From an uncultured bacterium (lineage in GTDB: Bacteria; Omnitrophota; Omnitrophia; Omnitrophales; Aquincolibacteriaceae), in assembly GCA_964482725.1 (NCBI GenBank), contig CAYZYT010000013.1, forward strand, positions 1,465-65,464: a DNA stretch of 64,000 bases, in the 5' to 3' direction. The position numbers were made by a program, and so were the translations under genes. Each line of letters opens with the position of its first letter. Within the stretch, counting starts at the first letter, position 1. The notes beneath the pieces were generated by a model. The model was not told the origin of the DNA. It did not search any database and was given only the letters and a program-made list of their open reading frames with translations. Below, piece by piece: positions 19,302 through 61,853 of the stretch.

Positions 19302-19847
19302 TCAGGAACGCTTGTAGGTTCCTCTCAACATTCCTTCTGCTAAAACACGCCCTTCCATCGTCTTGAGCAGGTCCCGCTTGGTGGCACCGGGCTTTAAATG
19401 AAGCATCGTATCCAGCGCGTAAACCATAAAAGCATAGCGATGCGTGCCGCTTGGGGGACACGGCCCCCCATACCCGATCGCTCCGAAATCATTCTTCCCT
19501 TGAAGCCCTCCCATGGAGAGTTTTTCATCCTTAGGAATTCCGGCAGGAAGCTGCGTCAAAGACGGCGGCAGATCATAAACCAGCCAATGCACCCAATCTC
19601 CGGCCGGAGCATCGGGATCCTCGGCAACGATCACAAGACTTTGCGTTTGGGTCGGAACGCCGGACCATGCGATCGGCGGTGACCTATCGGCTCCGTCGCA
19701 GGTAAAATCTGACGGAATGCTGCCCCGATCCTCGAACGCGGAACTGCGGACTTCGAGCTGTTCCATAAAAAACTCCTCCGTTTGCCCCAAAACAGGAGAG
19801 ATAAATAGCAGACCTAAAACAATAACCGTCATCCTGAGCATCGCGAA
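19302..19847 (-). CDS. YbhB/YbcL-family PEBP (Raf-kinase-inhibitor-like) periplasmic protein
   Basis: Motifs DGADRSPPIAWSGVP, LVIVAEDPDAP, HRYAFMVYALD. The ORF track starts at 19898; the likely start MLRMTVIV lies inside the MITE terminal repeat. Confidence 0.75.
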   Translation of the reverse strand, partial: FAMLRMTVIVLGLLFISPVLGQTEEFFMEQLEVRSSAFEDRGSIPSDFTCDGADRSPPIAWSGVPTQTQSLVIVAEDPDAPAGDWVHWLVYDLPPSLTQLPAGIPKDEKLSMGGLQGKNDFGAIGYGGPCPPSGTHRYAFMVYALDTMLHLKPGATKRDLLKTMEGRVLAEGMLRGTYKRS

Positions 19848-19918
19848 GGATCTCACATTAAAATTCTTCGCCCTGCTGTCCCGCCTCTGGCGGGACAAGC
19901 ATCAGGCTCAGCATGACG
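19826..19918. mobile_element. MITE/REP-like nested palindromic element, copy A
   Basis: ccGTCATCCTGAGCatcGCGAAGGATCTCacattaaaATTCTTCGCCctg[ctgtcccgcctctggcgggacaag]catcaggCTCAGcATGACG. Termini and inner arms are inverted repeats shared with copies B-E. Confidence 0.6.
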
Positions 19919-19993
19919 TGTTTTTTAGAGGCGCTTAAGATTCCTTTCATTCCTTCCTCTATTCGCCGTTCCACGTTACCCGTTCCCCGAATT

Positions 19994-20560
19994 TTACGAC
20001 ATACTCCTGACAGAGATCCGGTCGAGGTAACTCAGATCGTCGGTATTGAGACGGATCGTTTCACCCTCGCTGACAAATTGCGGCACGAGAACGATGAGCC
20101 CGTTCTCGAGTTCAGCCTCCTTGAAATTCGCATCGGATCCCAGCCCCTTCGGCGTGCTCACCACCTTGAGCTCGACGATCTTTGGGAACGCAATACTCAG
20201 GACTTTCCCTTCCCCAAAAAGCACCTCGATCACTTCATTCTCCCGCAGGAACACCTCGTGTTTGCCGACCGCCTTGGCCGACAGGGGAAACTGATCGTAG
20301 CTCTCCATATTCATGAACATGAAATGGTCGCCTTCACGGTAAAGATATTGCATCTTCACAACATGGACATCCACTTCCTCCGCGTTCGCGTCCGCGGACA
20401 TTTTTTTCTCGATCACATTTCCTTCATCAAGGCTCCGGAGCTTCAACATCGCGCTCTTGCCGAATTTCCCTGTCCCGCGAATCTCCTGCGTCAAGACCTT
20501 GCAAAGCTTCCCGTCCACGCGAATCACATTCCCTACCCGTATTTCTGATGCAATGACCAT
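19994..20560 (-). CDS. efp: Elongation factor P
   Basis: 188 aa; MVIASEIRVGNVIRVDGKLCKVLTQEIRGTGKFGKSAMLKLRSL..., typical EF-P length with KOW and OB domains. Confidence 0.9.
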   Translation of the reverse strand: MVIASEIRVGNVIRVDGKLCKVLTQEIRGTGKFGKSAMLKLRSLDEGNVIEKKMSADANAEEVDVHVVKMQYLYREGDHFMFMNMESYDQFPLSAKAVGKHEVFLRENEVIEVLFGEGKVLSIAFPKIVELKVVSTPKGLGSDANFKEAELENGLIVLVPQFVSEGETIRLNTDDLSYLDRISVRSMS

Positions 20561-20596
20561 TTTTATTCCTCCGATTCATTAATCCTTGGCAAGAAA

Positions 20597-21289
20597 TTAC
20601 TGCAAAGGAGTCCAATTCACACTAGAGTTAGAAAAGCCCGTTAAACTACTCGAAATAGCCACTATCCAATAATTTCCTTTCTTGACGGAAAAAGAAACGG
20701 TTCCGTAATAAACTTTTATAGCAGGAGAGACGAGTATACTCATCTGAACGCTATCAACAGCAATGGGGGTGCAATCGCTTAAAGGGCTCGAGCTGCTGCA
20801 GGTGATCCCTTGAATAATGCCGTCCTTTGCAGTGGTGTTTATCTGCACCCATGCAGCCACAAACCCATCGCTCGCCGCGGGGCCATAAGTTGTGTTAGCG
20901 CTCTTCAAACTCGAAGACCCCAGAGACACGCCACCCCCGAGATTCTTCCAGGTGGTACCATCGGTCGTATACTTAAAATTTTCTGAGCCTGATGTATTAT
21001 TATAATAAATACTACCTGCTGCACCGGAGGGGTTCGATACCCCTCCCACAAATGTAAGAACCCCTGTTTGCGGCGTAGTCCCAGTATAGCCTAAGGTAAG
21101 TATCGTGCTTTGGAGCGCGGAATATTCCCCCATCGGCGCGGGATAGTAGGTCGTCAGCTCGATCTTTCCGGCGTAAGCCGAAGGCGCCATCGCTAGAACC
21201 CAAACGATCAGGCTGAATAAAACAGTGGTTTTTAACATAGCAGATCCTTTTTGTTGTTTTATGGCTTTTTTTGAATCCCCTCCGAGCAC
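20597..21289 (-). CDS. Small secreted protein, paralog A of the conserved-N-terminus family
   Basis: Signal peptide MLKTTVLFSLIVWVLAMAPSAYA, then GKIELTTYYPAPMGEY; Ser/Thr/Gly-rich C-terminal domain. N-terminal ~45 codons near-identical at DNA level to 21447..22133 and 24504..25178. Confidence 0.7.
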   Translation of the reverse strand: MLGGDSKKAIKQQKGSAMLKTTVLFSLIVWVLAMAPSAYAGKIELTTYYPAPMGEYSALQSTILTLGYTGTTPQTGVLTFVGGVSNPSGAAGSIYYNNTSGSENFKYTTDGTTWKNLGGGVSLGSSSLKSANTTYGPAASDGFVAAWVQINTTAKDGIIQGITCSSSSPLSDCTPIAVDSVQMSILVSPAIKVYYGTVSFSVKKGNYWIVAISSSLTGFSNSSVNWTPLQ

Positions 21290-21343
21290 TTAGAATCCTC
21301 AGGGACAGGTCTGCTTCGATTTTCCAGACCTGTCCCTGCAGTC
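21241..21343 (-). promoter_or_regulatory. Conserved ~105-bp 5' leader (copy 1) with perfect 10-bp inverted repeat GGACAGGTCT/AGACCTGTCC
   Basis: ...tgttgttttatggcttttttt...cttagaatcc...ggacaggtctgcttcgattttccagacctgtccctgcagtcaa; near-identical copy at 22134..22240. Confidence 0.6.
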
Positions 21344-21415
21344 AAGACCTTGCAAAGCTTCCCATCCTCCCGGATCACATTCCCCACCCAAATATCCGAT
21401 GCACCGATCGTTTAT
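21340..21415 (-). pseudogene. Degenerate duplicate of the efp 5' end (first ~25 codons plus a few upstream bases)
   Basis: 21342-21412 (agtcaagaccttgcaaagcttcccatcctcccggatcacattccccacccaaatatccgatgcaccgatcg) is ~80% identical to efp 20489-20560 (cgtcaagaccttgcaaagcttcccgtccacgcgaatcacattccctacccgtatttctgatgcaatgaccat). Confidence 0.6.
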
Positions 21416-21446
21416 GCCTACTCAGCTTAAGAACACGATCCGATGA

Positions 21447-22133
21447 CTAATACTTAATGCAGTAAACCACCGCCCGATTTTTGGGCCGAGTTTCTGTACC
21501 GCCCGTCCCCTCCGTAGTACCCCCTTGTCTTCCATAATGGACCGTAGAACCACTCGAGAAATAAAAGACAGGACTGCTTGTCCCCCATATAGCGCCGTTT
21601 GCAGTATGCGCATGTGATTTGAAATCATCGGTTTGGATTGACCCGAGGGTCCGTGTCGCGACGTCAGGGTCCACCCCGCCCAATCCGCGCAGGAAATAAC
21701 CGCGATAATCCGGAAGATTAAATGTGGAACTTCCGTCGCCCGTTCCATGGGTCGTCCCAATAGCGGCAAAAAGAGCCGCGTAGTTCGATCTTGATACCGC
21801 CGCGCCGTTACAAACCAGCCATCCAGACGGAGCCGCGGACATGGCAAAAGCCGAAACCATACCGGGAGGATTCCCGCCTGTGGTTCCCCAAGAGCTTCCA
21901 TCGCAAACCTGAACCTGATTGGTCGAGGAATCGTAGTACATCATCCCTTCTGCCGCGGCATTACACACGGGCTGTGACTTCGGAACAAGCTTGAGGGTGT
22001 TACTCTGCAACGTATCATACTCTCCCATGGGTGCGGGATAGTAAGTCGTCAGCTCCACTTTCCCGGCATACACGGACGGCGTCATCGCCAGAACCCAAAC
22101 GATCAAGCTGAATAAAACCGTGTTTTTAAACAT
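21447..22133 (-). CDS. Secreted phage tail-collar (MdpB-like) domain protein, paralog B
   Basis: Signal peptide + GKVELTTYYPAPMGEY; C-terminal LVCNGAAVSRSNYAALFAAIGTTHGTGDGSSTFNLPDYRGYFLRG...ETRPKNRAVVYCIKY matches the tail-collar / microcystin-dependent-protein fold. Confidence 0.75.
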   Translation of the reverse strand: MFKNTVLFSLIVWVLAMTPSVYAGKVELTTYYPAPMGEYDTLQSNTLKLVPKSQPVCNAAAEGMMYYDSSTNQVQVCDGSSWGTTGGNPPGMVSAFAMSAAPSGWLVCNGAAVSRSNYAALFAAIGTTHGTGDGSSTFNLPDYRGYFLRGLGGVDPDVATRTLGSIQTDDFKSHAHTANGAIWGTSSPVFYFSSGSTVHYGRQGGTTEGTGGTETRPKNRAVVYCIKY

Positions 22134-22240
22134 TGGAGATCCTTTTTGTTGTTTTATGGCTTTTTTCGAATCAACTTCGGATACTTAGAATCCGGAAGGA
22201 CAGGTCTACTTCGCTTTTCCAGACCTGTCCCTGCAGTCAA
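22134..22240 (-). promoter_or_regulatory. Conserved 5' leader (copy 2) with GGACAGGTCT...AGACCTGTCC palindrome
   Basis: ggagatcctttttgttgttttatggcttttttcgaatc...cttagaatcc...ggacaggtctacttcgcttttccagacctgtccctgcagtcaa; the CYTH-gene stop codon lies in the terminal tcaa. Confidence 0.6.
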
Positions 22241-22743
22241 CGCTTCCATCCAAACATCATCTGAAGATAAGATCTTTCTTCTCGATCTGTACGCGTGAGG
22301 CCCAGTCTCTTTTCAATCTTTTTGATGGATTGAGACTGCCCTTCGATCTCAAGAAAACGGCCGAATCCGGGCAATCGGTCTAATGTGATATGACTCTTGC
22401 CGAGGCGGTAAAGCTCTCTTTCTTTTTTGTAACACATGACGACTTTGAACCCCGCAAGGCACAGAATCTTTTTCATCAGAATATAATCCACAGGCGTTTC
22501 GATCTCCAGGCGCTTCGTAAATTCGGCTTTCATCCGCGACCCTTTAAGCGTCAGCGTAGCATCCTTCCCGTACTTCCGGAGCCGCATAGCAAGGCATTTC
22601 CCTCTGAGGTCTCCGTCCCGGTCAAAGAACTCGTTCGACTCGAATCCTCCGGCAACCTTCTTAGCGCCTATTTTTTGAAGCAGACCCCGAACCCGTTTCG
22701 GATCCTTCAGACGATATTTCTGTTCGATCTCAAAAAATCTCAT
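22237..22743 (-). CDS. CYTH-domain protein (CyaB-like class IV adenylate cyclase / triphosphate tunnel metalloenzyme)
   Basis: 168 aa; MRFFEIEQKYRL... N-terminal EIE.K motif, basic residues and the LEIE motif typical of CYTH. Confidence 0.65.
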   Translation of the reverse strand: MRFFEIEQKYRLKDPKRVRGLLQKIGAKKVAGGFESNEFFDRDGDLRGKCLAMRLRKYGKDATLTLKGSRMKAEFTKRLEIETPVDYILMKKILCLAGFKVVMCYKKERELYRLGKSHITLDRLPGFGRFLEIEGQSQSIKKIEKRLGLTRTDREERSYLQMMFGWKR

Positions 22744-22845
22744 AGACTCTAAACGCCTCGCTATAACAGCTTATCCCGTAGGGCAGGTTTTCCGCCTGCA
22801 AAGCAGGACGGATTCGTCAAACACCAAGCCGTCCGCTGAAAAACT

Positions 22846-22925
22846 CCGTCATCCTGAAACGATGCGCTGCATCGCGAAGGATCTCCGCTCGAGATTCTTC
22901 GCCCTCTCCGGGGCTCAGAATGACG
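22846..22925. mobile_element. MITE/REP-like nested palindromic element, copy B
   Basis: ccGTCATCCTGAaacgatgcgctgcatcGCGAAGGATCTCcgctcGAGATTCTTCGCCctctccggGGCTCAGAATGACG. Confidence 0.6.
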
Positions 22926-22949
22926 CGGGCCGGATTTTTCAGCAACCAG

Positions 22950-23504
22950 CTACGCCTGGATCAACATTTTATCGCGGACATTGTCGGCCAGGTCTTTTCC
23001 CACAAGTCGGGTAGCGATCACAAGCGCAAATTCCAGAGCCGTACCGGGGCCCTGGCTTGTGATAATATTCCCGTCCACCACCACTCGTTCCTTGGAATGA
23101 ATGGTCGTACTCGAAAAATCCGCTTCACAACCCGGATAGCAGGTCGCCTTCTTACCCTCGAGGATACCCAACGGCGCTAACACAACCGCCGGAGCGGCGC
23201 AGATCGCGGCCACGAGCTTTCCTTCGGCATTCATTCTTTTGATAAATTTCGAAACTTCTTCGGACTTGGCGAGATTCGTAGCTCCCGGAAGCCCTCCGGG
23301 AAGGATCACGACGTCGGGAAGGTCCTGGATATCTTTCAGAAGTGCGTCCGCGTGAATTCCGATCTTCCTTGAACTCGAAACAAGTCTGGAGTCTACGCCG
23401 GCCAAGGTCACCCGGACCCCTGCACGCCTCAGGACATCGATCGGCGCGATCGCTTCAAGTTCTTCAAACCCCTCTGCGAGAATCACAACCGCTGTTTTTG
23501 GCAT
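22950..23504 (-). CDS. DJ-1/PfpI family protein
   Basis: 184 aa; VAAICAAPAVVLAPLGILEGKKATCYPG (nucleophile-elbow Cys), VVILPGGLPG. Confidence 0.8.
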   Translation of the reverse strand: MPKTAVVILAEGFEELEAIAPIDVLRRAGVRVTLAGVDSRLVSSSRKIGIHADALLKDIQDLPDVVILPGGLPGATNLAKSEEVSKFIKRMNAEGKLVAAICAAPAVVLAPLGILEGKKATCYPGCEADFSSTTIHSKERVVVDGNIITSQGPGTALEFALVIATRLVGKDLADNVRDKMLIQA

Positions 23505-23515
23505 AGCCGCCCCTT

Positions 23516-23941
23516 TTACTGAGGTCCTGGATTTTGCGCATTCGGATCAACTTGTTCCACCACAAGCTTCTTCTGCCCGAAGATCCTGTCATTGGCAAAG
23601 ATCCGGAATTCATAATTCCCCGCGTGCATGAAACGCACCCCCCGGAGGTTAAACACCAGCTCATGTGCGTCGAGAGGACTCGGGACGCGCACTTCTTCCG
23701 GCATTTCGCTTTTGCCGATCATAGCATCACTTTGCAGGTCTACGAGTTCCAGCCGGAAGTGATAGCCCCCCTGCGCATCCGTCAGCTTGATATAGACGGA
23801 CATCGCAAAATGTGTGCAGGGAAACGTGGCCGCGCCGATATTCTCAAAAACCCCGATCAGACTTTTTTTGTTCGTGCCGCGCTCCGTGATCACGTAATCG
23901 CAGATGAGCATGGCGTTCGTTTTAGGTGTAGGAGATGTCAT
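23516..23941 (-). CDS. Hypothetical protein
   Basis: 141 aa ORF, no recognised motifs. Confidence 0.45.
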   Translation of the reverse strand: MTSPTPKTNAMLICDYVITERGTNKKSLIGVFENIGAATFPCTHFAMSVYIKLTDAQGGYHFRLELVDLQSDAMIGKSEMPEEVRVPSPLDAHELVFNLRGVRFMHAGNYEFRIFANDRIFGQKKLVVEQVDPNAQNPGPQ

Positions 23942-23974
23942 AAAACCCTTTCGTTAGGCCGCCCAACATAATGA

Positions 23975-24040
23975 CCGTCATCCTGAGCGAAGCGAAGGAT
24001 CTCGCTTCGGGATTCTTCGCCCTACGGGCTCAGAATGACG
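23975..24040. mobile_element. MITE/REP-like nested palindromic element, copy C (compact form)
   Basis: ccGTCATCCTGAGCgaaGCGAAGGATCTCgcttcgGGATTCTTCGCCctacgGGCTCAGAATGACG. Confidence 0.65.
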
Positions 24041-24076
24041 CATTTTGTTAATGGCTCTTAATAGTTTTTTAAAAAT

Positions 24077-24364
24077 CTATCCAAATTTATAATGTTTCTT
24101 AACAGCTCGCTTGATATTCCAAACGCATTTCAGCCCCTGGGGGAATGTCACAAGATCCCCTTTGCCAAACGAGACCTCGCCCTCTGGAGTCTTCACAATC
24201 ACCTCGCCCTCCAGAAAATAGCAAATCTCTTGCTCATCGTAATACCAGTCAAAGCTCGAGACCTCTTTCGTCCAGATGGGCCATGAAAACACTCCCAGGG
24301 CATTCAGCTTTTCGCTCGTGGGTTTTTCCACCAAAATCTTCAAGGTCGCTTTTCCTGCCGCCAC
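24077..24364 (-). CDS. Cupin-domain protein (small, single barrel)
   Basis: 95 aa; ...WPIWTKEVSSFDWYYDEQEICYFLEGEVIVKTPEGEVSFGKGDLVTFPQG..., cupin-like strands. Confidence 0.55.
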   Translation of the reverse strand: MAAGKATLKILVEKPTSEKLNALGVFSWPIWTKEVSSFDWYYDEQEICYFLEGEVIVKTPEGEVSFGKGDLVTFPQGLKCVWNIKRAVKKHYKFG

Positions 24365-24503
24365 GATACGCCTCTCGCGTTTTTAAGAGGAACGCCGTTA
24401 AGCCCCGGACTTAAAAAGATTTTCAAAGTGGGTTCATATTTCCGGCTTTTAAGTGCCTTTGGCCTGTCTGTCCCATAGGAGTATTTCTACTTTGGTTGGA
24501 CAC

Positions 24504-25178
24504 TTATTCCCATAAAAGAAGGCGCCAATAGCCTGTGTTATATGTATTCTCAGCATAAGTAGTTTCATTGTAATATCTAAACAGTGGCGTGCCGGTTTTA
24601 ATAGTAAATATAACCGTAGAACTGGTTAATCTGACGGTTACGGGATTGGATAATCCATATGTGTTTATTGATCTGGAATAAATAGAAGCGGGTGAAGAAG
24701 AAGTAGCAAAAAACAATTCCGTTCTCCTGGGGAGGACCCCGAGCTGATGCGAAAAAGTGGTTAAATGGTCGTCAGTTGTATTATCCGCAACCCAGCCCGA
24801 ATCATAATCTGGCTCTGCCCCTCCCAAATTCTTCCAGCTAGAACCGTCGCTGTAAAGCATCCCGCCAACACCCGCTCCATTGCCGTCTGAACTGTATCTT
24901 ATTGAACCCGCTGTGCCGCCACTTTGAGCGCCGGCGTTGCCGGTGACCGGAGCCAGCGTCAGAGTATTATCCACAGCTAGAATCGCATGATTCGTGGTCG
25001 ATCCCACATTAACACCCCCCGACGTAGAAGCAAAAGCTGCGTTCTCCGTAGTGCTTAATGTTTTATATTCTCCGTACGGCGCAGGATAGTAGGTCGTCAG
25101 CTCCACTTTCCCGGCATAAGCAGATGGCGTCATTGCCAGGATCAAAAAAATCATGGTTGTTTTTTGGATCAGGCGCAT
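24504..25178 (-). CDS. Small secreted protein, paralog C of the conserved-N-terminus family
   Basis: Signal peptide ...MIFLILAMTPSAYA + GKVELTTYYPAPYGEY; shares a G-[SM]-[IM]-[YR]-Y...DGS[ST]W[KG]NLGG-type motif with paralogs A/B; unrelated C-terminus. DNA 25085-25140 is ~90% identical to 22030-22085. Confidence 0.7.
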   Translation of the reverse strand: MRLIQKTTMIFLILAMTPSAYAGKVELTTYYPAPYGEYKTLSTTENAAFASTSGGVNVGSTTNHAILAVDNTLTLAPVTGNAGAQSGGTAGSIRYSSDGNGAGVGGMLYSDGSSWKNLGGAEPDYDSGWVADNTTDDHLTTFSHQLGVLPRRTELFFATSSSPASIYSRSINTYGLSNPVTVRLTSSTVIFTIKTGTPLFRYYNETTYAENTYNTGYWRLLLWE

Positions 25179-25211
25179 GCAACTCCCCCTTTTTTACTTC
25201 ATTTGCAGCAT

Positions 25212-25883
25212 TTATTTCCTGAACTTTTCAAGCCACCCGCAGTATTCACACTCCGGCGCAGCCTTGGGCGCAGGACCTGTGAGGATCGCGAGCGCCTGGT
25301 GGAACAATTCCTTCGCGCGTTTAACGTCCGTTGCAATCCGAATCGGTTGGATCTCAAACCCCACCTTACCGTGCTCCCCGACCTCTTTGGGCGAGTAATA
25401 AAGAAGAAATCCGTAGCCGGCGGTTTTGAGTCCGTTCCCCTCGAGCATCAGCGCGTAACAATCCAGCTGGGTTTGATAATACTTGGTCGCGTCCTCTTCA
25501 TTCGTGGGCGAGCCCTTGGTCTTGTAGTCGAACGGAACATAAGCACCCTCCTTCACAAGCAGATCATCGAGCATGCCTGAGAGCACTTCCCCGTTCTCAT
25601 GGTATTGGAGCCCGGTACGCCAGGCACGCCATCTCTCGAGCTGGGCCTGATCGTCATAAAGATGAATGCCTTTGAAAGCGTCAATGCGAAGTTCCGGAGG
25701 AAGTATTCCCTTGGCGCGAAAGGTATCGAAATAGGTCTTGATCACGCGGTCCATGCCTCCCGGAAGCGAGGGGAAAATACCGCGAGGCCGCTTGATTCCC
25801 TTCACCTTCTCCAGCCAGAAACACCGCGGACAATTCTTGAAAAGGCTCAACGCAGATGGAGATAACGTGACTTTCTTTGTCAT
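25212..25883 (-). CDS. PD-(D/E)XK nuclease family protein (RecB-like exonuclease domain with Cys cluster)
   Basis: 223 aa; N-terminal SPSALSLFKNCPRCFWL, DYK catalytic triad region, C-terminal CEYCGW, pattern of the PDDEXK_1 / Cas4-like fold. Confidence 0.6.
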   Translation of the reverse strand: MTKKVTLSPSALSLFKNCPRCFWLEKVKGIKRPRGIFPSLPGGMDRVIKTYFDTFRAKGILPPELRIDAFKGIHLYDDQAQLERWRAWRTGLQYHENGEVLSGMLDDLLVKEGAYVPFDYKTKGSPTNEEDATKYYQTQLDCYALMLEGNGLKTAGYGFLLYYSPKEVGEHGKVGFEIQPIRIATDVKRAKELFHQALAILTGPAPKAAPECEYCGWLEKFRK

Positions 25884-25951
25884 GGGCTCCTCAAAAATGG
25901 AATGGCGTGATTATATATCTGCAGTCTGCCCAATAGCCAGCGATTTACAAT

Positions 25952-26027
25952 CGGATGGATGGGATCGGAGGGTGGATGGAGAAAAACCAAGCCTGTCGCC
26001 ATCCGTCATCCGCCATCCTCCATCCGT
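25952..26027. repeat. GGATGG/CCATCC-rich long hairpin element, copy 1 (distal arm overlaps 3' end of the PflX-like gene)
   Basis: ggatggatgggatcggagggtggatggag-aaaaaccaagcctgt-cgccatccgtcatccgccatcctccatccg. Confidence 0.5.
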
Positions 26028-27013
26028 CTTTTGTTTCCAGGGAACGGATCTTCGGGATCCTTGAAATCCGGCAGAAAGGCGGTCTCTTCTTTCAATTCCT
26101 GCGTGTAAACTTTTTCAAACCCGAGCTTCTCCACGAGTTCCAGAACCTGTTCGTATTCCCCGGAGCTGAGGGCCCGCTGAAGTTTGTCCCTCTGGAAACA
26201 GCCCGGCACCGGCCGGAATTGGCTCATGATCGAGAGCGGGAGTCCGGAGCCGAACTCCCTGTGAAGAATCCTCAGGACTTTCAGACTGTTTTCGACATAG
26301 CCCGGTAAAACCAGATGACGAACAAGGACTCCGCGCCGAGCGGTCTCCGCGCCCAAAACATCCCACGGCTCCAGAAAACCTTTGAGCTTCACCATTTCGT
26401 GAATGGCTTTTAAAGCAATCTCCGGATATCGCGCGTCCCCCATACAGATTTTCGCAAGCTCCGGCTCCGCGAATTTAAAATCCGGAAGGAAAATATCCAT
26501 GAATTCGGAATACTCTTTCACCATTTCCGGCTTCTGATATCCGGAACAGTTGAAGAGCTTTTGCACTTCAACCCCTTCTTCCCGCAACGCATGACAGAGC
26601 GACTGGATATGCGGCCAGAAATGGTCCGGCGTTACGAAATTCAGATTATGGACGTTTTTCAGAAGAAGCGCCCGAACCTCCGACAGAAGTTCCGCGGGCG
26701 TGATCGTGCGCCCGTCATGCTGGATCGAGATCTGGTAGTTTTGGCAGAAAAAGCACTGGCTGGAGCAACCGCTAAAGAAGACCGTCCCGGAACCCCGGGA
26801 TCCCGTGAAGGAAGGTTCTTCTCCGAAGTGAGGCCCTATGAAAGAAACGCGGCAGGCCGGAACCCCTTGCTTCCGGCACGCTCGCGGGAACTTGATGTTC
26901 CCGGCTTCGCAGATCGCGCTCTCCCCGCAGAAACCTAAAGGGCCTTTCGTGCGATCAACTTTACAATCGCGAGGACACAGAGTGCAATGCTGATAGGCCT
27001 CAAAAGAGCTCAT
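26006..27013 (-). CDS. Radical SAM protein, PflX-like (putative pyruvate formate-lyase activating enzyme family)
   Basis: 335 aa; N-terminal CTLCPRDCKVDRTKGPLGFCGE motif; radical SAM CSSQCFFC (CxxxCxxC). Confidence 0.75.
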   Translation of the reverse strand: MSSFEAYQHCTLCPRDCKVDRTKGPLGFCGESAICEAGNIKFPRACRKQGVPACRVSFIGPHFGEEPSFTGSRGSGTVFFSGCSSQCFFCQNYQISIQHDGRTITPAELLSEVRALLLKNVHNLNFVTPDHFWPHIQSLCHALREEGVEVQKLFNCSGYQKPEMVKEYSEFMDIFLPDFKFAEPELAKICMGDARYPEIALKAIHEMVKLKGFLEPWDVLGAETARRGVLVRHLVLPGYVENSLKVLRILHREFGSGLPLSIMSQFRPVPGCFQRDKLQRALSSGEYEQVLELVEKLGFEKVYTQELKEETAFLPDFKDPEDPFPGNKRRMEDGG

Positions 27014-27019
27014 GGAGGA

Positions 27020-27883: not shown

Positions 27884-27895
27884 AAATTTGAAAAG

Positions 27896-42849: not shown

Positions 42850-42915
42850 GAATGGTGGAGGGTGGATGGTGCAGCAACGGGCTCTCCGTCATCCGCCATC
42901 CGCCCTCCTCCATCC
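42850..42915. repeat. GGATGG/CCATCC-rich long hairpin element, copy 2
   Basis: gaatggtggagggtggatggtg-cagcaacgggctct-ccgtcatccgccatccgccctcctccatcc; intergenic between exonuclease stop and dsbD start. Confidence 0.5.
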
Positions 42916-44517: not shown

Positions 44518-45318
44518 TTAGATCAATTCTCTCAGATCGCGGATCACCGTCACGAAATCCTGATGGTCTTTCGCCAAAGTCGCATGCCGAGCCGAACGGT
44601 CGAGCCAGATGGCCTTGATCCCGGCCAGATGCGCGCCGCGGACATCGTCTTCCAGGCTATCCCCGATATGAACAGCCTCGCCCGCCGAGACATTCGCTTT
44701 TTTTAAAGCTTCCTCAAAGATCTTCGGGTTGGGTTTGGCCGCGCCGAAAACCGCTGAGATAATTTTGAAATCGAAATACCGATCGATCCCAAGGCCCTCG
44801 CATAATTTCAAAAGACGGCTGTCCCAATTCGAGACCATCCCAATAATAAATTTTTTCTCCTTAAACGCCTGAAGCACGTCCTTAACTTCCGGATAAAGTT
44901 TCCAAACACCGGGTTCGGCGAAAAGAGTGTGGAGCTCGTCAAAAAAAGGATCGAACGCCCGAAGCCCTTTAAAATCCTGAAAGACGGCCGTCACGATCTT
45001 GCGCCAAAACTCCTTCTCAACCTTCTCATCCGATTGGCTCCTAAGATCGCCTATCCCGTCATGCTCGCTCCAGACCCGACGGAACGCGGCCTCGACTTCT
45101 TTGACACCCACTTGGCAGCCATGCTTCGCAGCCACTTCGCTGTAATAATATCCTACCGACGGGAACGGACGGAAAAGGGTCCCCCCCGCATCCAACAAGA
45201 TCGCCCGGGTCCCTGCGGGGATCTTCACGTTCGCCTTAATATCAGGGAAAGGTCTGCTTCCCTTTGGAAGACCCGTCCCTTGGGTGTCAAAATTGGAGGA
45301 ACTATTGCTGTGAGCCAC
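44518..45318 (-). CDS. HAD-superfamily hydrolase (start probably GTG at 45318; ORF track over-extends to 45780)
   Basis: AILLDAGGTLF (DxG), MVSNWD, HIGDSLEDDVRGA. GGAGGAG RBS 6 nt upstream of GTG at 45318; the upstream part of the track ORF overlaps the TPR gene in another frame. Confidence 0.65.
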   Translation of the reverse strand: MAHSNSSSNFDTQGTGLPKGSRPFPDIKANVKIPAGTRAILLDAGGTLFRPFPSVGYYYSEVAAKHGCQVGVKEVEAAFRRVWSEHDGIGDLRSQSDEKVEKEFWRKIVTAVFQDFKGLRAFDPFFDELHTLFAEPGVWKLYPEVKDVLQAFKEKKFIIGMVSNWDSRLLKLCEGLGIDRYFDFKIISAVFGAAKPNPKIFEEALKKANVSAGEAVHIGDSLEDDVRGAHLAGIKAIWLDRSARHATLAKDHQDFVTVIRDLRELI

Positions 45319-53166: not shown

Positions 53167-53305
53167 CGAATAGATCTCCTTTACCCCGTTAGAGATAGGA
53201 AGCGCTTATCAAAGCGCTTCCGTAAACTCAACATATTCTTTTTAAAATCGTCCTCGCCATAAATCAAATAACAACGAATTGCTTTACATTGATCTCTAAC
53301 GGGGC

Positions 53306-55096
53306 TTAAAGATAATATTCTAGAATGATCTCTTTTTTCTTGAGAAAGGCGCCGATCTTCTCGACCGCCGCTTCCAAAGATTCATTTTCTTCTAAAACAA
53401 AAGACGGTTTAAACCCGGAAAACGTGTTGGGCCCCACCTGAATCACCAAAACCTCATTCGGACTATTCAAGATTCGGAGGGTTTCGATATCAAAATCATC
53501 CAGGTCCGATGCAGTGGTAATAAAAACCTGCCCGGATTCGGCAATGATCCTGCCGAGCTCCCCAAGATGCCGAACGATCTCTTCCTGGGAATCAACTCCT
53601 TGAGACAATTCGCTATCGAGGCCGGAAACAAGATTTGAAATGCCGAGGTAGAAAGCCTTCACTCCTTGCTTCAGGAGACGCGCCTCAAGCTCCCGTGCGA
53701 TCTTTTGCTTGCCGGTATTGACCTTGCCGGAGATGAGAATGAATGCCGGCCGGTGACCATAGATTGCTCCTCTTTCCGCAGAACTAACGCCGCTCCGCTC
53801 CCAGATCTGCTCGCGATGGCGAACATGGTCTTTTAGGATCGACCGGTCCTCCGGAAGCGCCTCCAAAACGATCCCGGCGCCTGCGATCTCATAGTTATCC
53901 ACGATCACGAAACGGCCTGTCTCACGAAGATCGCCCGCCTTATCGAAGGCAAGAGGTTTACCCGTTTCAAAAACGCACTCCGCAACATCATGCCGATCCA
54001 CTTGCGCCTTGTTGGCGATCGAAGTCAGCTCCGAGCTGTCCAGCACACTCAGGACTTCGACAAGTCGAACTGAAGGACGGCTCGCGCCGAGTTTTAATTT
54101 ATATTTTTTCCCTTTCACAAGCGGTGCATGGCCCATCCAAAAAATATTCGCCTTAAAACGCGTGCTCACGGACGGCAGAGGATCCGATGTTTTCACCATC
54201 AGCTCGCCCGGCTTGATATAAAGTTGGGTTTCAGTCGTAAAACCGATCGCTTCCCCGGCGGAGGCTTCTTGCTTCGACAGCGCATTGAACTCTTCGATCG
54301 TTTTAATCCGCGTTCTTTTTTTTGAGGGAAGGAACACCACTTCATCCCCGACCCGGATCGTTCCTGTAGCAATCGTCCCGGCCATGATGCGCCGGTCATC
54401 GGCGAGCTCTGTGAATTTGTAAATATCCTGCACCGGAAAACGGAAGGGATACGCTTCGCTCGTGGTTTCATGATGAAAAGAATCCAGCTGCCCCAACACC
54501 GAAAGCCCGGCATACCACGGCATTTCCGGCGACTTGGCGATCATGTTCACACCGTTCATCGCGCTCATTGGAATGAAAGCGCTCGGTTGAATGCTGAACC
54601 CTTTCAGGAAATCACCGTATTCTTTTTCGATCGCCCGGAAAACCTGTTCGCTGTAATCCACGAGATCCATCTTGTTCACAAGCACTGCCACTTGCCGGAT
54701 CCCGAGCATGGAAAGCAGGTAACCGTGTCGCTTGGAATTCTCGAGAATGCCTTCCTTCGCATCGATCACGAGGAGTGCGGCTTCGGCCCGGGACGCACCC
54801 GTGATCATGTTCTTCAAAAATTCAATATGACCCGGAGCATCGATCACGATGTATTCGCGCTTCTTCGTGTGAAAGAAGCAGCGCGCGGCATCGATCGTGA
54901 TCCCCTGCGACTGCTCATCCTTAAGAGCGTCGAGAAGAAACGCGTATTCGAAAGGTTTCGCGTTCTTCGCGCAGGTCGCTTTGACCTGTTCGAGTTTCCC
55001 TTCCGGCAACGATCCCGTATCGGCCAAGAGCCGGCCAATGACGGTGCTTTTGCCGTGGTCCACATGCCCGACGATCACAATGTTCATTCTGTCCAT
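53306..55096 (-). CDS. cysN: Sulfate adenylyltransferase subunit 1 (CysN GTPase) fused to an APS-kinase-like (CysC) domain with degenerate P-loop
   Basis: N-terminal [28 protein letters not shown] (CysN). C-terminal ~170 aa APS-kinase-like domain with non-canonical P-loop [10 protein letters not shown]. Confidence 0.8.
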
Positions 55097-55097
55097 A

Positions 55098-55979
55098 TCA
55101 CATGTACCCTTCGCGGCGAAGCGTCTCTAGCCCGCCGCCGTCTTCTTTGTCCTGGGCCCGGCCGGAACGCTCCGCGATGTTCGAAAATTTTCCGGTTTTG
55201 AGCTCTTCGATGATCTCTTTCACGTTCCGCGCATCCGACTTCACCGAGCCCGTGCAGGGATAGCAGCCAAGCGAGCGATAGCGAAGCCCCTTCCCGTTAT
55301 TGAAATAAAGCGGGATGATCGGGATATTCTCCCGGTCAATGTATTCCCAAATATTGAGCTCGGTCCAATCCAGGAGCGGATGAACCCGGACATGGGTCCC
55401 GGGCGCGAAATCGGTCTTGTACTGGCTCCAGAGCTCCGGCGGCTGATCACCAATATTCCAATCGCTTTGCTTATCGCGCGGAGAAAAATAGCGTTCCTTC
55501 GAGCGGCTCCCTTCTTCATCCGCGCGAACCCCCACGATCACGCCGGTATAAGGCTGCGGGTTCTTTTCTTGGACATATTTCCCAAGCTTGTGATCGAACG
55601 CGTAACGCGGCCACTCCCCTGACAGCGTGTGCTTAAGCGCCTCGCTTTTCAAAGATTTGCAGCAAGTCAGGCGGTCGACTTTCCCGTCCGGAAAGGTCTG
55701 CTTCGCCGCAAGCGCCTGGGCATTCTCGCCGTACAAAAGATTGAGATGCCAATCCGCTGCAAGTTTGTCGCGATAGGCGATCATTTCCGGGATCTTATAA
55801 TGCGTGTCGATATGGAGGAGCGGGAGCGGCACATGACCGAAGAATGCCTTTCGGGCCAGCCAGAGCAGAACCGTGCTGTCTTTGCCGATCGACCAAAGCA
55901 TGACAAGGCTTTTGAATTCCTTGTACGCTTCGCGCAGAATATGAATGCTCTGCGCTTCGAGTTTTCTTAAAGTGTCCAT
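55098..55979 (-). CDS. cysD: Sulfate adenylyltransferase subunit 2
   Basis: 293 aa; PAPS-reductase-like ATP-PPase fold ([12 protein letters not shown]). Confidence 0.9.
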
Positions 55980-56707
55980 TACGAACCTTTCTTCACGGCC
56001 TTGCCATCCTTAAAATGTAAGCCACATTCTTTTTTATCCGGGCTCTCCCACCACCACCGCCCGGCACGAATATCTTCACCCGGCTTTACCGCTCGCGTGC
56101 ACGGAGCGCAACCGATGCTCGGATATCCCTGATCATGCAATTTGTTATAAGGGACCTTGTGGGCATGAACATAATCCCACACCTGCTTTTCCGTCCAATC
56201 GATCAACGGATTGATCTTATAAAGACCGTTCGCTTCATCCCATTCGATAACATTCAGGTCTGCACGCGTCACAGATTGTTCACGACGCAGGCCGCAGATC
56301 CAGGCCTTCAGACCTTTCAGTGCGCGTTTAAGCGGCTCGACCTTCCGGACCTGGCAGCAAAGCTTCCGGTTCTCGACGCTTTCATAAAAAAGATCCAGCC
56401 CCTTCTCCGCTACCATTTTTTTAACTGCCGTGATATCCGGAGAATAAACCCGGTATTTGAAACCGTATTTTTTCTCCGTCTCCTTCACGCACTCGAGCGT
56501 TTCCTGAGGCAACCGCCCGGTGTCCAGCGTGAAAACAATCGCCTTCGGATCGATCCTGAGTAGCATATCCGTCAGAACCTGATCCTCCGCTCCAAGGCTC
56601 GACGCCAACGCGACCTGATCCACCCTGAAATGGCCGAAAGCCCATGACAAAACATCCTCGGGCCCCTTTCCCGCCAAATTTAGATTGAATGCTTTAAGAT
56701 TTTCCAT
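55979..56707 (-). CDS. cysH: Adenylyl-sulfate (APS) reductase, [4Fe-4S] type CysH
   Basis: Cys-Cys pair ([12 protein letters not shown]) and C-terminal ...CGLH motif typical of APS- rather than PAPS-reductases. Internal Met MENLKAF taken as start (track ORF to 56827). Confidence 0.8.
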
Positions 56708-56711
56708 AGCG

Positions 56712-56933
56712 TCAGATCTGATAATCGAGCGGCTTTCGCCCCAGCTTGATTTTGTTCCACGCGCGTTCATGAAGATAATAAACCAGGATCTTGATGAACA
56801 CGTCGGCAAGCCCGATTGAGAGAGCAAATTTCAGTTGCCGGGTAATACCCCAGGAAATAAGAATGGTAGTGATAGTTCCTGTGATCCGGTACGAAACGGC
56901 TTTGACGATACTTCTCAGATGGTGGTCTATCAT
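56712..56933 (-). CDS. DUF2061-family small membrane protein
   Basis: MIDHHLRSIVKAVSYRITGTITTILISWGITRQLKFALSIGLADVFIKILVYYLHERAWNKIKLG. Confidence 0.6.
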   Translation of the reverse strand: MIDHHLRSIVKAVSYRITGTITTILISWGITRQLKFALSIGLADVFIKILVYYLHERAWNKIKLGRKPLDYQI

Positions 56934-56947
56934 TGGGTTTTCAGCAA

Positions 56948-57883
56948 TCAACCCGCAAATTCCTGAAAGAGCCAGGTCGAGAGATAGCGCTCCCCAGAAT
57001 CGCAGATCACGGTTACGATCGTTTTGCCTTTGGACTCCGGCCGTTTCGCCACTTCCAGCGCGGCCCAAACGTTCGCGCCGGCCGAGATCCCTCCCAGGAT
57101 TCCTTCCTGGCGTGCCAACTGACGGGCTACTTCTCCGGCATCCTCATGACGAACCTTGATGATCTCGTCATAAACTTTTGTGTTCAGAACACCGGGGACA
57201 AAACCGGCACCAATCCCTTGAATCTTGTGAGGCCCCGCCTTCCCGCCTGACAACACGGGAGAGTCGACCGGCTCCACGGCGATGACTTTCGCTGAGGGTT
57301 TTCTCTGCTTCAAAACTTCGCCCACCCCAGTCAGCGTACCGCCCGTCCCGACACCGGCAATAAAAACATCCACGGCTCCGTCCGTATCTTTCCAGATCTC
57401 TTCGGCCGTTGTTTTCCGGTGGATCTCCGAATTCGCGGGATTGTTGAACTGTTGGGGAATAAAACTTCCGGGGACTGTCTTGGCGATCTCCTCAGCTTTT
57501 TCGACCGCGCCTCGCATGCCCTGTGCCCCCTCGGTCAGAACCACTTCCGCGCCCAGAATCTTCAAAAGCTGGCGACGCTCGACGCTCATGGTCTCCGGCA
57601 TGGTCAGAATAAGCCGGTAACCGCGCGCTGCAGCAACAAACGCCAGAGCGATCCCTGTGTTCCCACTCGTAGGCTCCACGATGACACTGCCAGGCTTGAG
57701 CTTCCCGGCCTTTTCGGCAGCCTCGACCATAGCGACCCCAATCCTATCCTTGACGCTTGAGAGCGGATTCGATGACTCGAGCTTCACCAAGATCGTCGCG
57801 GACAATCCCTTCGCGATGCGGTTGAGACGCACAAGCGGCGTATTGCCAACCGTTTGTGTGATATCGCTGAATATTTTAGCCAT
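56948..57883 (-). CDS. cysK: Cysteine synthase (O-acetylserine sulfhydrylase)
   Basis: 311 aa; PLP-lysine motif [23 protein letters not shown] loop. Confidence 0.9.
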
Positions 57884-58022
57884 GGGTCATTCTCCTTTAC
57901 CCCGTTAGAGATAGGAAACGCTTCTAGCGTTTCCGTCTGTTTTTGAATAGGTGTTCCTCAGCCCTACCTTTTCCATCTTCAAATCACCACAATAAATATC
58001 ACCCCAATAATCTCTAACGGGG

Positions 58023-59887
<1,865 letters not shown>

Positions 59888-60127
59888 AGTCTAGTAACCC
59901 CATAGATTAATAGCTGTAATATAACCCACTATCAAAAATCTGTCAAATTTATTTTAAAAGTTTTTTTTGGAAAAATCAGGGCAGAGATCCCCTCGAGCTC
60001 TATATTAAAAATAACCTTTAATCTATCCATAATAGATTCCTCGGAGAAGTTCCGGCTTCCTCCCTTTCAAAAATCGCCCCCACCCGCTATTGTTACGGGC
60101 GAGAGAATAATCAAAGGAGGTGTCGCG

Positions 60128-60373
60128 ATGAGCTTCGTCAACAAACAAACCTGGGAATATCTGGTGCGGGATTTTCTGGAGATCAAATGCACATTAAAAG
60201 AACCTGAGCAGGAATTCCTTCTAGATTTTTTGAAGGACAAGGGCGTCAGGGCCGAAGAGATCCAAATGCATCCGGCCTTCTCCGTGGACGATCACTTGGT
60301 GGTCATCATGGAGGATGCGGGCTCGAAGAAACGACTCTTTTATCACCCACAGAAAAAGACGATCGAGGAATGA
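60128..60373 (+). CDS. Hypothetical small protein
   Basis: 81 aa ORF, no recognised motifs. Confidence 0.35.
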   Translation: MSFVNKQTWEYLVRDFLEIKCTLKEPEQEFLLDFLKDKGVRAEEIQMHPAFSVDDHLVVIMEDAGSKKRLFYHPQKKTIEE

Positions 60374-60382
60374 TTAAAAACA

Positions 60383-60439
60383 GGATGGCGGAAGGCGAAA
60401 AACCAAAAACGCCCTCCTCCATCCATCATCCTCCATCCG
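60383..60439. terminator. GGATGG/CCATCC-rich hairpin element, copy 3; acts as likely intrinsic terminator for the rluB-like gene
   Basis: Minus sense: ggatggaggatgatggatggaggagggcg-tttttggttttt-cgccttccgccatcc followed by TGTTTTTAAT. Confidence 0.5.
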
Positions 60440-60440
60440 G

Positions 60441-61175
60441 CTATAAGTCAACCGCCTTGCGAAGTTCGCGGGCCTCGTAGGAAGTCAGAAAACGACCCTG
60501 CCCCGGCGCGAGATGCCCGAGCTTGAGAGGACCGAAGGAAAAGCGGTTCAGCATCACGACATCATATTCGAATCGTTGGAACACCCGCCGGATCTGACGC
60601 TTCTTTCCTTCGCGAAGCTCGACCATCACGATCCTCGGCGAGATCGGCCGGATCTCTTCCAATTTGAGAAAACCGTCGTACGAATGAAACCCCTCGAGCA
60701 CCCGGTTACGGTCCCGCTCGTCCCAGGCGCGATTGAGCTTCACCTGATACCATTTCTCCACGTGAAAGCGCGGATGGATCAGGCGGTTCGCAAGCTCACC
60801 ATCGTTGGTCATAAGAAGGAGACCGGAGGAATCCTTATCGAGGCGCCCCACGGGAAACACGCGAACGCGATTCGTGGAGGATTGGCGCGTTGCGACCACG
60901 AGATGCCTCGGCAAAAGGTCGAAAACCGTTTTCTTGGCATGCCGGTCCTCGGCCGTCACGACATACCCTTCGGGCTTATTCAAAATAAAATAGACATGCG
61001 GGGCGAGCTGAAGGACTTTCTGACGGTACATGATCGTATCGTTCTGAAAATCGACCTGCCGGCCCAGATCTTGCACAACTTCACCATTGACGGAAATAGC
61101 ACCGTTGGTGACAAAAACCTCGCATTTTCTGCGAGACCCAAGCCCTGCGCTCGCTAAGGCGTGTGCGATCCTCAT
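60441..61175 (-). CDS. RsuA/RluB-family rRNA pseudouridine synthase (S4 + PseudoU_synth_2)
   Basis: MRIAHALASAGLGSRRKCE... (S4), FPVGRLDKDSSGLLLMTNDGELANRL (catalytic Asp). Confidence 0.85.
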   Translation of the reverse strand: MRIAHALASAGLGSRRKCEVFVTNGAISVNGEVVQDLGRQVDFQNDTIMYRQKVLQLAPHVYFILNKPEGYVVTAEDRHAKKTVFDLLPRHLVVATRQSSTNRVRVFPVGRLDKDSSGLLLMTNDGELANRLIHPRFHVEKWYQVKLNRAWDERDRNRVLEGFHSYDGFLKLEEIRPISPRIVMVELREGKKRQIRRVFQRFEYDVVMLNRFSFGPLKLGHLAPGQGRFLTSYEARELRKAVDL

Positions 61176-61775
61176 CGTTTTTTCAGCTCCGCGTAATAAA
61201 GAGAACGGCCTTCGGCCGCCCATTTGATCTCATAACTCGTCTTATTCATTCCGCCCAGAATTCTTTCATTCACTGTTTCGCGCACATTCTCCCAGAGTTC
61301 CGCGGTAGCCGCTATGGTTTTCTTCATGGCATCAAAATAGTCCTTATCATCGGTCGCGATCTCCACCAACCCGCCCGGCACAAGCCGCGCGTGAAGCAGC
61401 TTAAGAAGCTCCGCTGTGAAAACCCGGCGAACCTGATGCCGGCGTTTCGGCCAGGGGTCCGGAAAGTAAATATGGAAGACACTCACGCTTCCGAGGGCGA
61501 TCGCCTCCATCAAAAAAACTCGCGCCTCGGCGCGGAGAAACCGGATGTTGGGAAGTACTCGCTTTTGAGCACGCGTCTTCCCGATATTCATAAACTTGCT
61601 GACCCGGTCGATCCCGAGAAAGTTGGTCCCCGGATTTTCGATCGAGCGCGCAACGAGGAATTTTCCCTTCCCGCACCCGATCTCGAGCTCCACCGGATGG
61701 GTGTTCCCGAAGAATTCGCTGAAAATAATGGGGTCGTGTTTTTCCTGCGGCATACCCGGCGACATTTTTGTCATC
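61172..61775 (-). CDS. trmB: tRNA (guanine-N7)-methyltransferase
   Basis: ELEIGCGKGKFLV, FPDPWPK. Likely start MTKMSPG, whose ATG is inside the terminal repeat of MITE copy E (track ORF extends to 61888). Confidence 0.8.
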
Positions 61776-61853
61776 CTGAGCGGCCCTGAAGGACTGCTTC
61801 GCTGAGCGAAGGATCTCTCTTTGGATTCTTCGGCCTTTGGCCTCAGAATGACG
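61770..61853. mobile_element. MITE/REP-like nested palindromic element, copy E
   Basis: GTCATCCTGAGCggccctgaaggactgcttcgctgaGCGAAGGATCTCtctttGGATTCTTCGGCctttgGCCTCAGAATGACgg. Confidence 0.6.

Follow-up and report, generated by a model that had tools for sequence, protein, structure and literature searches.

Two described systems of small bacterial palindromic repeats come closest to the elements treated here. In Neisseria, SsnA, a GIY-YIG nuclease with a single domain and 94 aa, targets single-stranded DNA (ssDNA) at the repeat NTS (CGTCATTCCCGCGMAVGCGGGAATCYRG, with the frame CGTCAT...ATC) (Chenal et al., 2025, Nat Commun 16:2388, PMC11893778). Cleavage by SsnA depends on the 3 nt that precede the palindrome, and binding depends above all on the C that immediately follows it; the enzyme accepts neither double-stranded DNA nor RNA nor the reverse strand, and motifs of this kind border ssn genes across bacteria (PMC11893778). 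The CGTC-tagged repetitive extragenic palindromic (REP) sequences defined by Di Nocera, De Gregorio, and Rocco (2013, BMC Genomics 14:522, PMC3733652) carry a terminal CGTC (often TGTC, with CCTC as a further variant), a stem that begins with A-T and then T-A, and a 3-nt tail. They form mostly head-to-head dimers with the tags outside, some lie in frame inside genes, no transposase is associated with them, and their members include dRS3 of Neisseria and RPE-4 and RPE-6 of Rickettsia (PMC3733652). This study concerns five copies of a palindromic element in a stretch of 64,000 nt from contig CAYZYT010000013.1 of an uncultured Omnitrophota bacterium (the window; coordinates are counted from its first letter). 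The copies are probably gene-less head-to-head doublets of [C/T]GTC-tagged hairpins related to the CGTC REP and Ssn repeats, for which analogy points to a GIY-YIG ssDNA nuclease as partner. Their units are of an already described kind, with a stem family that is missed by the published search pattern.

A preliminary description had reported a nested palindrome resembling REP sequences or miniature inverted-repeat transposable elements (MITEs) at five places in the window. All five copies are present on inspection, with spans that shift slightly once the tag bases are counted. Each comprises two units, A and B, as follows.

19827-19918, plus strand: copy 1, head-to-head doublet, 92 nt including both tag bases
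19827-19854, plus strand: unit A of copy 1
about 19860-19918, minus strand: unit B of copy 1, degenerate (GTCATGCTGAG), with a long additional tip hairpin
22847-22925, plus strand: copy 2, doublet between the stop of the DJ-1/PfpI gene (22950) and the start of the CYTH gene (22743)
22847-22885, plus strand: unit A of copy 2, with an extended tip hairpin
22891-22925, minus strand: unit B of copy 2
23976-24040, plus strand: copy 3, the most canonical doublet, between the stop of the cupin gene (24077) and the start of the DUF6941 gene
23976-24003: unit A of copy 3 (CGTCATCCTGAGCGAAGCGAAGGATCTC)
24009-24040, minus strand: unit B of copy 3
59343-59406, minus strand: copy 4, doublet inverted relative to the other four, between the stop of the Rrf2 gene (59435) and metY
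59343-59374, plus strand: unit B of copy 4
59379-59406, minus strand: unit A of copy 4, with a TGTC tag
61769-61853, plus strand: copy 5, doublet within the long open reading frame (ORF) of trmB
61769-61817, plus strand: unit A of copy 5, with a TGTC tag and an extended tip
61822-61853, minus strand: unit B of copy 5

The decamer GTCATYCTGA occurs exactly nine times in the window, every time within one of the five copies, and the tenth terminus is a variant with one mismatch in copy 1. A pattern made of the two termini had no match in 100 dinucleotide shuffles of the window, which sets the chance expectation at none against the five copies observed. Alignment of the copies bears out the inner arms GCGAAGGATCTC / GAGATTCTTCGC and delimits the common blocks CGTCATCCTGAG, GCGAAGGATCTC, (G)ATTCTTCG, and CTCAGAATGACG, between which the inserts vary. 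The tag reads CGTC in eight of the ten units and TGTC in the other two. All five copies belong to one A-B heterodimer type, in which A combines an ATCCT stem with a GCGAAGC-type tip and B an ATTCT stem with a GGCC-AAA-GGCC-type tip; this implies copying of the doublet as a whole. The neighbours are co-directional minus-strand genes throughout (EF-P/PEBP, DJ-1/CYTH, cupin/DUF6941, Rrf2/metY, and rumA-like/trmB for copies 1 to 5, respectively), and homologues place the organism in Candidatus Omnitrophota. An intergenic location, which had been assigned to every copy, applies to copies 2-4; copy 1 interrupts the ancestral coding sequence of PEBP, and copy 5 lies inside the trmB ORF.

To what extent the element is conserved became apparent in a scan of a genome collection in which only the two termini were fixed. 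It returned at least 120 loci with 128 copies, all of them dimers with the tags outside, as the pattern demanded; this and all further counts from the scan are among the matches listed. The same termini occur in viral contigs and in at least 16 bacterial phyla, namely Bacteroidota, Acidobacteriota, Chloroflexota, Patescibacteria (Candidate Phyla Radiation, CPR), Bacillota, Planctomycetota, Verrucomicrobiota, Gemmatimonadota, Cyanobacteriota, Nitrospirota, Nitrospinota, Armatimonadota, Synergistota, Desulfobacterota, Pseudomonadota, and Omnitrophota. Immediately ahead of GTCAT, 81% of cases have T and 14% have C, and conservation of the flanks stops at Y-[T/C] ahead of GTCAT. The inner blocks CGAAGRATC and GATYCTTCG were outside the search pattern, yet they are kept in nearly all 128 copies. 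Among the 110 copies that were parsed, from about 16 phyla, the Y of the outer arm and the R of the inner arm within one half form Watson-Crick pairs in 108/110 and 106/110. Between the halves the same positions match in 59/110 and 61/110, which is random, and the two halves of the element assort independently. It follows that the conserved unit is the half-element hairpin; the long nested palindrome, as which the element had been introduced, is ruled out as the conserved structure.

In this unit of about 28 nt, the hairpin stands between two unpaired stretches, the [C/T]GTC tag on its 5' side and the C(TC) tail on its 3' side. The formula of the unit is [C/T]GTC / AT-YCT-GA-(tip)-GA-AGR-AT / C, and two units, inverted relative to each other, make up the element. 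The hairpin has 5 bp (AT-YCT/AGR-AT), a tandem G.A/A.G step, and at its tip either the mini-hairpin GC-GNA-GC or an expanded stem. In a search of viral contigs, where solo units also occur, three stem positions were left free on each side; 142 of the 151 units found were fully complementary across them, with at least nine triplet pairs in use. A formal covariation count over 83 distinct sequences had 98.8% of cells paired and compensatory changes at all three free pairs. None of 500 shuffles reached the observed score, and pairing fell to 16-56% when the partner was slid by 1-3 columns. While the three stem pairs covary, the GTC tag, the AT-first stem, and the 3' C of the C-T-C tail are invariant, and the positions that are both invariant and unpaired are those decisive for SsnA (PMC11893778). 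Viral contigs also yielded a sister family, whose ATTGC/GCAAT stem is complementary in 136 of 142 units and which is evidence for a wider superfamily. Folded in isolation as ssDNA, the unit forms the 5 bp, a 2x2 G.A/A.G loop, and the GC-GNA-GC or a longer tip; GCGNAGC is described as a well-known, very stable DNA mini-hairpin (PMC13037366).

The units are associated with genes for small GIY-YIG nucleases. A first search covered the window and 3.1 Mb of element-bearing loci and had one match only, at an Omnitrophota locus (L035). The protein encoded there has 96 aa and matches the Pfam GIY-YIG domain (PF01541, E = 3.8e-18). Its catalytic residues are spaced Y8/Y19/E66, compared with Y6/Y17/E64 in the 94 aa of SsnA, a member of the Ssn clade cd10448 of CDD, and NCBIfam has no specific model for it. 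Upstream, a unit (tGTCATTCTGAG...CGAAGAATCTC) stops 14 nt short of the nuclease ATG; downstream, an inverted unit (GAGATCCTTCG...CCTCAGGATGACa) starts at the stop codon. A gene-less doublet is found about 50 nt upstream of this nuclease-bearing one. When the search was repeated with the L035 protein, one further match appeared, a viral homologue with CGTC hairpins of its own. A metagenome scan with the same query recovered 80 loci encoding relatives with 55-66% identity, and tagged units stand beside these genes upstream in 60 of 77 and downstream in 65 of 76 loci. At 52 of 73 loci the gene is bracketed on both sides with the tags outward. The stems at these loci are TCT/CCT, as in the window family, or TGC, as in the sister family. 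Unit density is 6.03/kb within 250 nt of the nuclease gene versus 0.37/kb beyond 400 nt, a 16-fold difference. The gene occupies the spacer of the doublet, with a median of 33 nt from unit to ATG and 6 nt from stop to inverted unit, and the whole measures about 403 bp from tag to tag. The viral GIY-YIG homologue, on contig IMGVR_UViG_3300037552_000032 (locus L160, 10540-10990), is apparently frameshifted and flanked on each side by a different CGTC hairpin, tCGTCRGCCCGGGCYTGACCCGGGCC, both in the same orientation.

With the Ssn repeats and their motif SRM, the window family shares the CGTCAT-[stem-loop-stem]-ATC frame, the invariant unpaired 5' GTC and 3' C, the strand-specific orientation, and a copy number that in some species runs into the hundreds per genome. 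The gene of about 95 codons for a single-domain GIY-YIG protein between repeats, in a unit-gene-unit arrangement like that of an insertion sequence (IS), is likewise common to both, although for the window family it is seen at L035 and at the loci of its relatives, not in the window. The two differ in the stem, which is AT-YCT-GA...GA-AGR-AT with a tandem G.A and an expandable GNA-type tip in the window family but G+C-rich and perfect in SRM. In addition, the tag of the window family is mostly TGTC outside this genome, and its hosts include Omnitrophota, CPR, Acidobacteriota, Chloroflexota, Bacillota, and viral contigs. Likeness to the CGTC REPs extends to the tag, the AT-first stem, the 3-nt tail, head-to-head dimers that include heterodimers, and spacers with small stem-loops; in both, copies follow unidirectional or convergent genes, some are intragenic and in frame over 20-30 aa, and no transposase is associated. 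In the four CGTC REP families, however, the stem is perfect and 8-9 bp long, the loop measures 4-5 nt, and the tail is CCA, and these families come from 5 phyla, mostly from Alphaproteobacteria, whereas the window family has a 5-bp stem, the G.A/A.G step, a variable tip hairpin, and a CTC tail in about 16 phyla. Held against the 8-9 bp of the CGTC REP stem, the window stem spans nine positions, of which positions 6-7 are the tandem G.A/A.G, followed by a GNA triloop or an expanded tip, an agreement in layout with differences in detail. This stem is absent from the supplementary data of Di Nocera et al. (PMC3733652), and a literature search returned nothing relevant for the core string or for palindromic repeats in Omnitrophota.

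Because of the Neisseria work and the strong association of gene and repeat, we infer a mechanism of the Ssn kind. By analogy with NTS and SsnA, a small single-domain GIY-YIG nuclease would bind the unit hairpin on one ssDNA strand and then cut a few nucleotides 5' of the tag, and the spread of the repeats would depend on this nuclease. The complete element is about 0.4 kb long and consists of a unit, the nuclease gene, and an inverted unit, and the window has only the short form, with a 10-40-nt spacer instead of the gene. Copies came to lie downstream of genes, two of them in the first codons of the next gene, where copy 1 split the coding region of the PEBP signal peptide and copy 5 added 28 in-frame codons to the trmB N-terminus. 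The Ssn partnership of nuclease and hairpin would then extend to a stem family present in Omnitrophota, CPR, Acidobacteriota, Chloroflexota, Bacillota, and viral contigs. L035 offers a concrete, testable nuclease/hairpin pair, with the unit sequence GTCATYCTGAGCGNAGCGAAGRATC as a candidate ssDNA target.

Several observations weigh against this interpretation. In the full doublet, the long hairpin is thermodynamically preferred over two unit hairpins. The 64-kb window encodes neither a GIY-YIG nor a Y1 protein, which leaves a cognate nuclease in the host genome unproven, and the sole PDB relative of the L035 nuclease is a UPF0213 GIY-YIG protein. Copies 1-3 are kept in contigs of sibling strains (94-96% identity); given this stability across a divergence of 4-6%, recent mobility in the lineage is not demonstrated. 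Finally, the published SRM pattern, HGTCWYN(0-2)YYVSBRHN(0-5)WNVSBRGN(0-2)RNCYNB, has no match on either strand of the window and fits none of the ten units. In a control, Neisseria NTS matched the pattern and four test units did not. The window units do fit its ends (5' HGTCWY and 3' RNCYNB), and the misfit is in stem composition.

A more far-reaching and rather doubtful extension is that the module of about 0.4 kb (unit, GIY-YIG gene, unit) is a minimal selfish homing element, of which the gene-less doublets are landing sites or footprints. In this scenario, the nuclease would nick the doublet hairpin in ssDNA as DNA is replicated or taken up, and the gene would enter the spacer when the break is repaired from a copy that bears it. 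If it were true, the conservation of the unit across about 16 phyla and viral contigs would reflect frequent joint transfer of nuclease and hairpin, partly on phages. Insertions into first codons would be tolerated, with two of the three frames per half free of stops and ATGs pointing outward at both ends.

These outward ATGs are the basis of another explanation, put forward in the preliminary description: a MITE whose terminal ATGAC was recruited as translation start of two genes, PEBP and trmB, with the hairpin regulating it. On the evidence from PEBP, trmB, metY, and the wider family, we regard it as unlikely. The relevant features are these.

19302-19841, minus strand: PEBP (YbhB/YbcL family), candidate starts at 19841 (MLRMTV), 19832 (MTV), and 19766 (MEQLEV)
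19858-19959, minus strand: remnant of the original PEBP start, with the Shine-Dalgarno sequence GAGGAAGGA (19959-19951) and ATG 19950-19948
61172-61888, minus strand: long trmB ORF, 238 aa, with ATG 61888 and the alternative in-frame ATGs 61774 (in the element), 61765, and 61753

Most PEBP orthologues (58-70% identity) have the signal peptide MKKIxxLFLxGMxLxTFPVLGQAEE. The window PEBP sequence VIVLGLLFISPVLGQTEE is homologous to its h- and c-regions, and copy 1 stands in place of the n-region and start. What remains of the original start is now a 30-codon ORF that closes at TAA 19860-19858, in the centre of copy 1. In silico loss of 91 nt (the element and one flanking base) joins GAGGAAGGA-ATG in frame to the h-region and yields MKGILSASKK[H/Q]VIVLGLLFISPVLGQ..., which aligns with the signal peptides of the orthologues from residue 1. 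Since its removal restores an orthologue-like signal peptide, copy 1 was inserted into the PEBP coding sequence. For this copy alone can the exact boundaries of insertion be inferred, because relatives have unrelated sequence or another palindrome at the sites of copies 4 and 5: the copy 5 site in L126 holds a different palindrome, and the copy 4 site in L127 unrelated sequence.

The ATG formerly given at 19847 corresponds to two ATGs of the element, 19841-19839 (MLRMTV) and 19832-19830 (MTV, the terminal ATGAC). They are the sole in-frame ATGs upstream of the h-region, the frame is likewise open in strains diverged by 4-6%, and one gene caller takes MLRMTV as the PEBP start. Moreover, the 30-codon ORF of the original start stops about 17 nt before the element ATG, so that termination-reinitiation is conceivable. 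However, neither ATG is preceded by a Shine-Dalgarno sequence, and both are buried in the hairpin stem. The internal Met at 19766 (MEQLEV), in contrast, has a strong GGAGGAG Shine-Dalgarno sequence 6 nt upstream and is the start used by many orthologues of a 154-aa class and by three gene calls in sibling strains. Donation of a start codon to PEBP by copy 1 is plausible but unproven, and would at most be a local accident in which the insertion split the signal peptide and yet may have left a usable start. Independently of the element, the orthologues with a signal peptide (P0002-P0120; window 19766-19790) have a conserved Met 2-4 residues past the predicted cleavage site. The Glu/Gly codons ahead of this Met form a Shine-Dalgarno-like GGAG/GAGG and the 154-aa class begins exactly there, which hints at dual isoforms, secreted and cytoplasmic, from a single gene.

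For trmB, the proposal is not supported. The element ATG is located at 61774-61772 rather than at 61775, and the ORF reads through copy 5 from ATG 61888, which overlaps the stop of the upstream rumA-like gene and has its own Shine-Dalgarno sequence (GGAG) 8 nt upstream. The 84 nt between the tags of copy 5 equal 28 codons (VILRPKAEESKERSFAQRSSPSGPLRMT) in frame with the trmB ORF. Canonical TrmB of Omnitrophota has 197 aa (MARAFVEEKY...) and a start that also overlaps the stop of the upstream gene; with in-frame read-through from this conserved start, the element ATG is not needed. In one relative (82% identity), the same element is 21 nt shorter and the frame is kept, and in another an unrelated 12-bp palindrome takes the place of copy 5. 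Palindromic repeats that lie in frame inside genes without destroying them are also known from the RPE families of Rickettsia. These differ from copy 5 in that RPE-1, at 100-150 bp, exceeds it in length and has an unrelated sequence, and RPE-4 and RPE-6 are CGTC REPs with other stems. The first codons of trmB (window 61750-61890; orthologues P0123-P0225), right after the rumA-like stop, have repeatedly received palindromic insertions in frame. Four or more palindromic repeat families, unrelated to one another, are found at this site in TrmB orthologues; with few exceptions the inserts are in frame and stop-free, and the proteins that have them reach 208-253 aa compared with the canonical 197 aa. 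This suggests translation of the inserts or, alternatively, the loss of insertions that are out of frame.

A third ORF that reaches the terminal ATGAC of an element is metY (58023-59348; copy 4, ATG 59348). Here the Shine-Dalgarno sequence AAAGGAGAG precedes MSKID at 59321, downstream of the element, and this start is conserved in a relative. In the wider family, among the matches listed, the outward ATG frame opens ORFs of at least 100 codons at 26/256 ends versus 29/256 for the other usable frame, and the third outward frame always meets TGA. Every unit of the superfamily carries an outward ATG(ACG) simply from the tag and the AT-first stem. This ATG is a by-product of the unit's architecture and not a selected start-codon cassette, and the seeming role of the copies as start donors is mostly a consequence of their landing places. 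Of the two start codons that the element was thought to supply, the one for PEBP is plausible, the one for trmB is not supported, and enrichment of the ATG frame across phyla is not seen. Genome annotation is affected more directly. ORFs become stretched to an element ATG, and 'hypothetical proteins' of the VILSEAKDL...SLRMT type are translated repeats; once the repeats are recognised, the starts of PEBP, metY, and trmB in the window can be fixed. At L035 (2900-3010 and ORFs 1572-3734 and 4560-7145), large ORFs include stretches translated from sister-family repeats (..RVIASEAKQSQ.., ..RVIASPP..) along with further peptides of repeat origin and illustrate how these elements inflate predicted proteins.

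Improbable to a still greater degree is a primary role in RNA, with the long hairpin conserved as an inter-cistronic terminator, attenuator, 3'-end stabiliser of mRNA, or structured non-coding RNA. All five copies are indeed situated between co-directional genes and downstream of a stop, the RNA folds predicted for them are of high stability (-31 to -52 kcal/mol, z-scores down to -7), and among the matches listed across phyla the element stands a median of 54 nt beyond the upstream stop. Classical REP sequences stabilise mRNA, too. The covariation, however, backs the unit hairpin, with positions random between the halves, and the most conserved nucleotides (the GTC tag and the 3' C) are unpaired, which points to recognition by a protein. 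No intrinsic terminator or U-tract was called at any of the five copies, and Rfam had no match at gathering threshold in the window save one tRNA and none touching copies 2 or 3 even at E<=10. Placement across phyla, again among the matches listed, comprises 47 copies between unidirectional, 24 between convergent, and 17 between divergent genes, with 11 inside naive ORFs; the divergent ones speak against such a role. So does the fact that SsnA binds no RNA (PMC11893778). RNA effects of the elements may occur as a side consequence. A hammerhead-like core (CUGA..GA..GAA) was considered and rejected: by eye, the common form is without G8/A9, the symmetric right half does not fit, and Rfam returned nothing.

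Two kinds of mobilisation by transposases were also examined. Mobilisation by a RAYT (Y1 HUH) transposase, as for REPINs or BIMEs of the GTAG type, would account for inverted doublets of tagged hairpins, for REP-like placement after stops and between unidirectional and convergent genes, and for the absence of target-site duplications, but is very improbable because the tag is [C/T]GTC instead of GT[AG]G, no transposase is associated with CGTC REPs (Di Nocera et al., PMC3733652), the strong association is with GIY-YIG genes, and a phmmer search of 3.1 Mb of element-bearing loci with Y1 transposase sequences found two Y1-type ORFs only, an IS200 with its own unrelated end hairpins and a weak RAYT-like match 3.8 kb from a unit, neither of them flanked by units. 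The resemblance to REPIN/BIME and RAYT (TnpA-REP) systems concerns the doublet, which rather than the single unit is apparently what is copied, and one protein gene flanked by cognate repeats; the tag and protein differ, with GTAG and a Y1 HUH transposase there and [C/T]GTC and a GIY-YIG nuclease here. As for the MITE label, target-site duplications, which had been suggested as a check, were not found: 114 of 127 copies among the matches listed are without a flanking direct repeat. With a nuclease-bearing doublet as parent, and not an IS with a DDE transposase, a classical MITE is rejected, and from 'MITE/REP-like' the REP-like doublet of tagged hairpins is retained. Flanking inverted repeats of at least 8 bp surround 12.9% of these copies versus 0.9% of controls, and a minority of copies is nested in larger palindromes. 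Copy 2 of the window is one of them, enclosed by the 9-bp inverted repeat GCTGAAAAA...TTTTTCAGC.

The window contains further repeats. A second small palindromic family, of the GAAATTGGGGCTGTCCCAATTC type, is present at 19086-19112, 19128-19154, and 44804-44830; its translation (..INF.K.EIGA..) resembles 28-aa in-frame inserts ('VPNPINFRESEIGATLVNPI') at the N-termini of many Omnitrophota TrmB proteins. A third palindromic family (D12), rich in GGATGG/CCATCC (GGAGGGTGGATGG...CCATCCGCCATCCTCCATCC), occupies 25967-26025, 42857-42915, and 60380-60438. At about 1-3400, an array of 39-nt (13-codon) tandem repeats has about 70 or more copies with 60-80% identity between them (families D1-D7) and presumably encodes a giant repetitive protein with a ...VNW.. 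motif on the minus strand. Finally, three paralogous secreted proteins are encoded at 20597-21289, 21447-22133, and 24504-25178 and have the N-terminus M..TVLFSLIVWVLAM.PS.YAGK.ELTTYYPAP.GEY in common. One of them has a phage-tail Collar domain, and their 5' regions are duplicated together with upstream sequence (D8, D9, D13).

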